DNA of 63,800 nt, filler included, from Collodictyon triciliatum (taxonomy: Eukaryota): the NCBI GenBank assembly GCA_043381765.1. It is 50 parts of 50 records of this genome, joined end to end, with 100 filler letters (N's around TTAATTAATTAA, not from the genome) between each part and the next. Parts side by side here need not be neighbours in the genome. Positions count along the whole stretch, not along the records: positions 49,886 to 51,060 come from JBHJMP010011976.1; 49 more parts are not named here. One strand, given 5' to 3'. The notes under the pieces are model-generated. The model was given only the letters and a program-made list of their open reading frames with translations. It did no database searches and had not been told where the DNA came from. Positions 49,886-51,060 of this stretch are shown in pieces. Within the stretch, counting starts at the first letter, position 1. Every line of letters begins with the position of its first letter. The translations under genes and the position numbers were made by a program.

Positions 49886-51060
49886 GGTTTTTGATTATAT
49901 TTGATTATATTAGATTTTGAATTTGAAACACCTTTCTTTTCAAACAATAATAACACCGCCAAGCCGTATGTTTGTGTCATGTATTTAAAATTGTAGTCTG
50001 TTTGATGAAAGACCCTCTTCTTCATTTCAAAGAAATTATCCCATAGGGTCTCGTTGCGTCCTGATATATTCTTCAGTAATAATGTTTTTTGAGATAATAC
50101 TAATAGATATATCAAACATGCAGTATCTAGAGTAATATGACATGGTATATTGTTAGTTTTTATAGAGATTGGTTGAAGCAGTTTGGCTCCAACGCCCCAA
50201 AAATGCGATTCATGTAAATCAGACATGGTATTGTACTTATTTGGATTGACTTTGACGTCATATTCGATACCATTTACAATATCGCTGGGAGTGATATGAT
50301 GCAAATGCGTTTTAGCCCAATTCTTTATATTGTTCCAGTATTTTGAGATTCTTGAATATGGCTTTTTTTAACTTTCGTAACTTTGGCTTTTTGATGGCTT
50401 CCGTAATATCCCCATCTTTAGGAAATGCTTGATTTATAAAGCGCAGTAACCTCTTTACAGAATGCTCCTTAATTTTATTATGAAAAGCTGTTAACATTTG
50501 CTTCGCCAAGTACGGTAGTACATGAGACAGTCTAACCAACGGAAAGCGCTCTTCTTGGGACAAAAGGAACCGAAAATCGTTGAGATAAAAAGTCATCATG
50601 TCATCTCATATCAGGAGTTTTTTTTTTAAACTTGCGGGTCTACCTTGTGAAACTATTCCAACTATCTTTAAAGCGTACAAAAAAAACTTTTCATCGATTG
50701 TTGGGACTTGTGATTTCAATATGTAACATTTTGCAAATAAATAAGTTTCGGCAACCAAATTATGACACAATAAAACCGTATCGTTGATTTTGTTATAGTC
50801 ACCCGCATTCTTTACAATCGACTTTTGAGATTTTTCTACATTTCGACAATGTGGGTTTACAGACTTTATATTCTCAGACTCAAGATGTTTTCTTTTCTTC
50901 ATCTGAAAGTCTTTGTTTTGCTTTTTCCTTTAGAAAACCACCGAGTTTTCAATTTGAATAAAACTTTAGTCAATCAGTCAATTGGTCGATTTAATAAAAA
51001 CAACTGCACAAAATCAATTATGTAAAATTAAGCATCTACCGAGACTCTCAAAATGTGCGC
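49886..51060 (-). pseudogene. Fanzor element copy B: N-terminal ~340 aa of a Fanzor1-type nuclease, broken by frameshifts/stops, plus upstream region
   Basis: Three consecutive ORF pieces (50902-50606, 50599-50312, 50304-49886) carry Fanzor1-type motifs in order: KSIVKN..KINDTVLLCHNLVAETYLF, HNKIKEH..RLLRFIN, YDVKVNP, LQPISIKTNNIPCHITLDT, LWDNFF..F..MTQTYGLAV (degenerate IxTDG). Confidence 0.85.

Follow-up and report, generated by a model that had tools for sequence, protein, structure and literature searches.

Do four broken stretches with Fanzor-like motifs in a eukaryotic assembly together make up one RNA-guided nuclease that could be put back to work, or is each the remnant of a separate copy? 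Fanzor1 proteins are the eukaryotic and giant-virus relatives of bacterial TnpB, and these compact eukaryotic RNA-guided DNA cutters are of interest for genome editing and for the persistence of transposons. A preliminary description of the 63.8-kb stretch of DNA analysed here (the window) had proposed a multi-copy family reconstructable from four contigs. Based on DNA and protein sequence comparisons, we conclude that the four pieces are very probably separate, old and dead copies of one Fanzor1-bearing transposable-element family.

In a live element of this kind, the 3′ end would be transcribed into a guide RNA (omega or fRNA), and the element's own protein of ~640 aa would bind this RNA and cut guide-matching DNA adjacent to a short motif. 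The RuvC site would be formed by an Asp (RuvC-I), the relocated Glu of “(D/N)E-F-x-TSK” and a second Asp (RuvC-III, “RD-x-N”). Movement of the element would depend on a separate transposase, which in relatives is a DDE enzyme of the IS630/Tc1-mariner type. For this host, we infer the guide RNA, the element ends and the enzyme that moved the copies from the family.

Make-up of the window and its four Fanzor1 pieces

The window is no continuous locus and consists of 50 contigs of 1172 to 1185 bp each (about 1.17 kb), sorted in falling size and separated by artificial spacers of the form N44-TTAATTAATTAA-N44. Because the contigs were joined artificially, distances and neighbourhoods across them are meaningless, and the four Fanzor1 pieces truly lie on four separate contigs. 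The assembly is AT-rich (GC of 0.24 to 0.41 in 2-kb windows). PX, cytochrome P450, FoP and leucine-rich-repeat domains were found on other window contigs using Pfam, indicating that the source is a eukaryote. An Rfam scan of the whole window returned no family, and blastn against a phage collection gave no match.

Several other contigs have features of their own. Interspersed repeats unrelated to Fanzor occur at 18218-19130, 25877-26220, 34271-34481, 40265-40530 and 49604-49647, and these families connect contigs 17961, 25640, 33307, 39686 and 48611 at 85 to 92% identity. The contig at 10264-11446 is a tandem repeat throughout, with one frame open and units of ...QQTPLNTQSNTFGNTESN..., and could be either a repetitive coding-like array or a satellite. 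Open reading frames (ORFs) of about 391 and 394 aa span the whole contigs at 40961-42135 (-) and 1285-2468 (+); neither has a Pfam match at E 0.001, and the former is also without a PHROG match. The contig at 58809-59982 (+) is likewise open throughout, and its 390-aa ORF is, by its matches to DUF5906 (7.7e-14) and PHROG “DNA primase” families (best, 9.4e-18), a D5-type primase/helicase.

The Fanzor1 pieces were delimited using P0001, a 648-aa metagenome protein that carries both halves of the gene in one ORF, as a tblastn query against the window. Exactly four contigs match it, at 50 to 87% identity, and nothing else does so at E < 1 (Table 1); these are the same two 5′ and two 3′ fragments that had been picked out from motifs. 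For residues 327 to 512 of P0001, where the RuvC-I DPG motif lies, tblastn gave no counterpart anywhere in the window, bearing out the earlier remark that this segment is absent. As DNA, the 5′ copies are 83% identical over 389 bp (50679-51060 versus 5178-5558) and the 3′ copies 80.6% identical over 377 bp (52979-53349 versus 63356-63722), and DNA of neither was found on any other window contig.

Table 1. Fanzor1-related contigs and features in the window
Feature	Position	Strand	Evidence
Contig with pieces A, B and C	49886-51060	-	P0001 aa 1-161 at 50902-50426, 60% identity; aa 187-326 at 50355-49927, 50%; tblastn E 1.8e-87
Contig with second 5′ copy	5131-6314	-	P0001 aa 1-36 and 38-74 at 5405-5189; tblastn E 4.7e-16
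Contig with 3′ copy 1	52436-53610	-	P0001 aa 513-626 at 53435-53087, three frames; tblastn E 5.1e-36
Contig with 3′ copy 2	62629-63800	-	P0001 aa 544-643 at 63716-63414; tblastn E 2.4e-17
Leader, non-coding, upstream of the Fanzor start codon	50903-51060	-	84.2% over 152 aligned bases to 5406-5558
Piece A, Fanzor1 N-terminus: MKKRKH... basic cluster, then REC-type region	50606-50902	-	~P0001 aa 1-100 (tblastn, ORF)
In-frame TGA between pieces A and B, in a locally diverged A-rich stretch	50603-50605	-	
Piece B, same frame as piece A	50312-50602	-	P0001 about aa 103-195; tblastn match to 160/160 related loci
Frameshift site between pieces B and C	50319-50321	-	B and C in different frames
Piece C, WED/REC-type part (YDVKVNP, IPCHITLDTACL)	49886-50318	-	P0001 aa 187-326; runs off contig end
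Second 5′ copy, P0001 aa 1-74, two frames (one frameshift)	5189-5405	-	tblastn E 4.7e-16
Leader of second 5′ copy, common to 50903-51060	5406-5558	-	
3′ copy 1: YGDW motif, then NGFRTSKMCHNC...CLIC zinc ribbon, RDFNSANNI (RuvC-III)	53087-53435	-	tblastn E 5.1e-36
Non-coding tail past the stop codon of 3′ copy 1	52969-53086	-	85.6% over 104 bases to 3′ copy 2
3′ copy 2: DEFRTSNVCCNC...CLIC, TAA stop, frameshift, RDFNSANNI	63414-63716	-	tblastn E 2.4e-17
Tail of 3′ copy 2, common to copy 1	63356-63413	-	Overlaps the stretch aligning with the last residues of P0001

The contig at 49886, read through with an X at the frameshift (about 50320), is collinear with P0001, and its leader continues past the contig end, the left end of the element not being within the contig. 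The frame of piece C is open from 50367 to 49886, and a comparison of this piece with longer proteins gave eight full-length relatives, the best being P0001 (E 1.2e-35). Homology of the second 5′ copy ends at a long T run beside the contig end. A simple repeat precedes 3′ copy 1, in place of the middle of the gene, and 3′ copy 2 is cut upstream at an A run that is followed by unrelated DNA. Clear 3′-tail homology between the two copies stops at about 52979 and 63356.

Assignment to the Fanzor1 family

The single ORF of P0001 contains the 5′ motifs noted previously together with the 3′ motifs GDW, NEFRTSK, CxxC and RDFNSANNI. Both halves also share one ORF in all 160 related loci that we fetched, which places the 5′ and 3′ pieces in a single family, as had been surmised. 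Searched against all PDB chains using phmmer, P0001 matched the Fanzor1 proteins GtFz1 (2.1e-28), PpFz1 (2.7e-24) and SpuFz1 (3.7e-23); the next hits were myoglobins at E > 0.3. A profile built from P0001 and eight relatives (A3) matched the same three at 8.7e-48 (PpFz1), 2.5e-45 (SpuFz1) and 8.9e-44 (GtFz1), the only chains at E ≤ 1e-10. None of the Fanzor2, TnpB or Cas12 chains in PDB was matched by this profile, and nothing besides the three Fanzor1 proteins fell below E 0.7. The proposed Fanzor1 identity is thus upheld at the level of the family.

Catalytic residues agree with this assignment. D364, E555 and D604 of P0001, which supply the D-E-D set within a single ORF linking both halves, are invariant across P0001 and its eight aligned relatives and fall on D383, E541 and D606 of SpuFz1 in the A3 alignment. 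The SpuFz1 residues are named as magnesium ligands in section 10 of Saito et al. (2023, PMC10432273). In the section of Bao and Jurka (2013, PMC3627910) that defines the Fanzor/TnpB motif, it is given as D-X(125,275)-[TS][TS]-X-X-C4 zinc finger-X(5,50)-RD. The part from [TS][TS]-x-x-C4 to RD can be read in both 3′ copies of the window, as TSKMCHNC...CLIC...RD on contig 52436 and TSNVCCNC...CLIC...RD on contig 62629, with frameshifts or a stop interrupting it in each. Both copies keep the RuvC-III Asp of RD-x-N within RDFNSANNI, which corresponds to SpuFz1 D606 through the profile.

The relocated Glu that precedes the TS motif in Fanzor1 is invariant in the profile, where it aligns to SpuFz1 E541, and is kept in one of the two 3′ copies (DEF on contig 62629, NGF on contig 52436). 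By position rather than by alignment, this Glu is probably the “alternative glutamate” of Fanzor1 mentioned in a passage of Jiang et al. (2023, PMC10530073). On the same positional grounds, it is probably also E536, which Bao and Jurka (2013, PMC3627910) call “extremely conserved”, and probably answers to the extra conserved G and E given there for Fanzor1. Most of the motifs first reported from the window are present, but some blended two copies: DEFRTS occurs on contig 62629 only, contig 52436 reading NGFRTSK, and the “TDG” motif is TYG in contig 49886.

Similarity to Fanzor1 spans both the N-terminal (REC/WED) and the C-terminal (RuvC/zinc ribbon) halves, as judged from the profile and with the pieces joined through P0001. 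When the window pieces alone were compared with PDB, piece C had no match and piece B reached GtFz1 at a non-significant E of 0.036; Pfam returned only sub-threshold matches to PF07282 (E 0.034 and 0.1). Because the pieces alone miss the solved structures, the Fanzor1 assignment is transitive, passing through P0001, which is a very strong bridge, and through it the sequence comparisons support placing the window pieces in the Fanzor1 family. All eight relatives of piece C carry the precomputed label PF26935.1, and a Pfam scan of five of the eight gave no PF26935.1 match. An exhaustive search using P0001 found 3147 cluster representatives at E ≤ 0.001, including 537 at ≤ 1e-30. A search for proteins of near length to piece C yielded only two hits, one of them 87% identical over 19% of the query, indicating that the protein collection contains no close relatives.

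Alignment of the family profile with the solved Fanzor1 proteins SpuFz1 (8gkh), GtFz1 (9cer) and PpFz1 (9cf0) extends across almost the full protein length, and the zinc ribbon after the TS motif and the N-terminal basic cluster are shared. Sequence identity to all three is low, and the window family is therefore a separate subfamily. The window copies also differ from the solved proteins in being broken, in lacking the RuvC-I part and, in one case, in lacking the catalytic Glu.

Decay and copy number

All four pieces contain stops, frameshifts or truncations, and none has an uninterrupted ORF of 600 to 650 aa. Altogether, we count two stops in frame, four or more frameshifts and a single active-site Glu-to-Gly change. 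The last of these is in 3′ copy 1 (codon 53310-53308), which also runs through three frames with two frameshifts, both in A runs. In 3′ copy 2, a TAA stop (63579-63581) and a frameshift both precede RDFNSANNI. Upstream homology is broken off in three of the four pieces.

Paired copies are 15 to 20% diverged, and their differences by codon position 1/2/3 are nearly even (10/11/10, 8/6/4 and 9/9/9). Identity in coding sequence (85.4, 83.8 and 79.7%) is no higher than in the flanks (84.2 and 85.6%). The even spread over codon positions, together with coding sequence that is no better kept than its surroundings, is typical of neutral decay after insertion. In a tree of 20 rows, the terminal branch leading to the window copy measures 0.99, whereas the median is 0.13. 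Read from their sequence, none of the four copies is functional; they are separate, decayed and truncated. The idea that the nuclease could be reconstructed from the four contigs is thus not sustained, given that the middle 186 residues are missing and that the copies differ by 15 to 20% neutral divergence.

Could the genes instead be intact in the organism, with the stops and frameshifts introduced by a low-coverage assembly in which repeats were collapsed? In favour of this, the contigs are very short and have simple repeats at their ends, at least two of the frameshifts fall within A runs, which are places where assembly errors also arise, and at 50320 a single base separates the window from most contigs of a run of another organism (X3). 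However, A-run errors cannot account for the substitutions (the TAA at 63579-63581 and the active-site Glu-to-Gly change, which are not indels), for the upstream truncation in three of the four pieces, or for the codon-position pattern, as sequencing errors would not spread 15 to 20% divergence evenly over codon positions and equally over coding sequence and flanks. We therefore consider an assembly artefact very unlikely and retain the reading of old, dead copies. An alternative genetic code was also considered for the in-frame TGA at 50603-50605 and rejected, because four other contigs are open for ~390 codons with standard stops and because five X3 contigs depart from the window in the same stretch.

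Evidence for repetition came from two sequencing runs of other organisms, X3 and X6, which belong to one study (43 and 51 million letters) and were matched at ≥ 85% likeness. In each, 193 short contigs fall on the 1175-bp contig at 49886; their depth is not convertible to copy number, and the longest contig listed is 419 letters, below a full gene. Across the identity bands of 99+, 95 to 99, 90 to 95 and under 90%, they are distributed as 11/50/74/58 in X3 and 9/49/78/57 in X6. With 193 contigs per run over all identity bands, both organisms have a highly repeated family of diverged copies, in agreement with the earlier claim of a multi-copy family. That claim had been based on four hits in 59 kb, and this basis does not hold. 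Short contigs are enriched for repeats, and because the window consists of near-equal short contigs from this repeat-rich class, 4 of 50 contigs overstates the density of the family.

The same contigs bear on the lesions of the window copy. At 50320, 71.3 of a depth of 107 in X3 (6 contigs) has a 1-base indel relative to the window, and five X3 contigs cease to follow the window at 50607, their loose ends (other strand, by eye) resembling P0001. Based on these differences, both lesions of contig 49886 look private to the window copy. Among public sequencing runs, none contained more than 12% of the words sampled from the contig at 49886, and no RNA run was among those listed. In a freshwater metagenome (X1), one 151-bp contig is identical to window positions 50435-50585, and a hot-spring metagenome (X2) contains six diverged pieces.

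Relatives, mobility and element ends

Using the family profile, we found relatives in 214 of 375 pattern-matched stretches of a viral collection and in 442 of 598 metagenome stretches. Many of those in the viral collection come from giant-virus MAG contigs as long as 267 kb and make up the largest group of relatives, in line with the giant-virus likeness noted at the outset. All 160 loci that were kept have an intact ORF of 573 to 637 aa (129 distinct sequences), and window pieces B, C and D each match every one of them by tblastn. A cluster of K/R residues at the N-terminus was tried as a mark of nuclear (host) rather than viral proteins and was discarded, being present in 125 of the 129 viral/metagenome ORFs.

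These relatives raise the question of whether the pieces are themselves giant-virus DNA, as integrated segments or viral contigs, and not a host-resident transposon family. Relatives are encoded by more than half of the viral-collection stretches, as counted above, and the window includes the contig with the D5-type ORF, a kind of primase/helicase that occurs in large DNA viruses and in virophage-like and polinton-like elements. However, the viral collection contains nothing closely related to that ORF, and we rejected it as a sign of viral DNA. The window copy is only ~40% identical to viral proteins and, in the unrooted tree of 20 rows, forms with P0001, P0002 and P0011 a group (support 100/100) that is distinct from the clade of viral and metagenome sequences. 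Moreover, the viral copies are intact in 160 of 160 cases while the window copies are neutrally decayed, a genomic repeat accounts better than a virus for the hundreds of diverged contigs seen in two other organisms, and the GC content of the four Fanzor1 contigs (0.31 to 0.36) is in keeping with that of the remainder of the window. A viral origin for the pieces thus seems highly improbable, and a transposable-element family resident in the host is preferred.

No trace of a transposase was detected in the window (best tblastn E 5), as stated previously, but contigs of 1.2 kb are too short for whole elements, and the absence carries little weight against a Tc1/mariner-borne element. At the level of the family, the view that the mobilising partner is unknown no longer applies: 50 of the 160 loci also include an IS630/Tc1-mariner-type (DDE_3) transposase relative, a count in which two collections overlap and some contigs are counted twice. 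Two of the nearest giant-virus loci exemplify the arrangement, with a DDE_3 plus HTH transposase of 343 to 346 aa just upstream on the opposite strand (L001, 4638-5678 [-]; L003, 4645-5676 [-]).

A tail of ~105 nt past the stop codon is common to both 3′ copies, conserved at the neutral level (85.6%). By its position, it is a candidate for the guide-RNA scaffold and right end of the element. Folding of the two window tails gave z-scores of -1.1 and -3.0, and compensatory changes were seen in 0 of the 36 pairs predicted. Leaders and tails gave only short, chance-level blastn matches to the 160 loci, a sequence model of 86 viral right ends had no hit in the window, and the window 3′ ends were not among the 31 hits at E ≤ 10 of a covariance model (R1) of 86 viral 3′ ends. 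A search for inverted repeats between the 5′ and 3′ flanks returned low-complexity matches only, and neither a TIR nor a TA duplication could be defined.

The viral and metagenome loci have a conserved 3′ end of their own. An alignment (A6) of 86 distinct 3′ ends (loci L001 to L158) contains a conserved scaffold in which 12 of 19 predicted pairs have compensatory changes. A near-invariant terminal motif, ...AAATG-N-AARGGTGT, ends 43 to 149 nt past the stop in 91 of 115 flanks. Judging from these alignments, this conserved end is probably a guide-RNA scaffold together with the right inverted repeat. A layout of “GUCU...hairpin...AAAAAG...AGAC” with a “GGTGTA” end appears by eye in the comparison of the window tail with the viral scaffold, and we make no claim for it.

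Several aspects of this picture are known already, as far as the sections of the literature cited here go: multi-copy Fanzor1 with partial copies, giant-virus Fanzor1 and mariner-borne Fanzor1. Among the elements in the relevant part of Bao and Jurka (2013, PMC3627910), PGv-1 and PUl-1 are mariner-type Fanzor1 elements of giant viruses and protists, and PUl-4 carries Fanzor only. The nearest large group of relatives of the window copies is likewise found beside a DDE_3/HTH transposase on giant-virus contigs, as in the PGv-1/PUl-1 type described there, and the window resembles the published account of PUl-4 in having a Fanzor without a transposase. Compared by description only with the PGv-1 and PUl elements, as far as that account covers them, the window copies differ in forming a separate clade and in being unmatched by the viral 3′ RNA model. 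According to Saito et al. (2023, PMC10432273), Spizellomyces punctatus has 42 Fanzor1 loci, full-length (19) or partial, plus 134 gene-less “ghost” loci, so that numerous partial Fanzor copies in one host genome have a published precedent. Unlike those of S. punctatus, the window copies are older (15 to 20% pairwise divergence), and no intact copy or ghost locus was seen in the window.

The window yields no new mechanism and no usable enzyme, and the intact natural relatives (P0001 and the 160 loci) are better material for tests. What it adds is a host lineage where one subfamily of Fanzor1 expanded and later fell into decay. Giant viruses abound in a close relative of this subfamily, a point relevant to the proposal of Bao and Jurka (2013, PMC3627910) that viruses spread Fanzors among eukaryotes. 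A broader reading, which we offer tentatively and regard as rather doubtful, is that the host lineage holds a very high-copy Fanzor1 family (hundreds of copies in relatives) that forms its own clade beside the mariner-Fanzor1 elements of giant viruses and whose spread involved no linked transposase. On this reading, open copies may persist in the related organisms, where a 1-base indel sets most contigs apart from the window at its frame change. If true, this would rank with the largest expansions of Fanzor1 in any cellular genome and would represent a natural virus-to-host (or host-to-virus) transfer that was followed by a burst.
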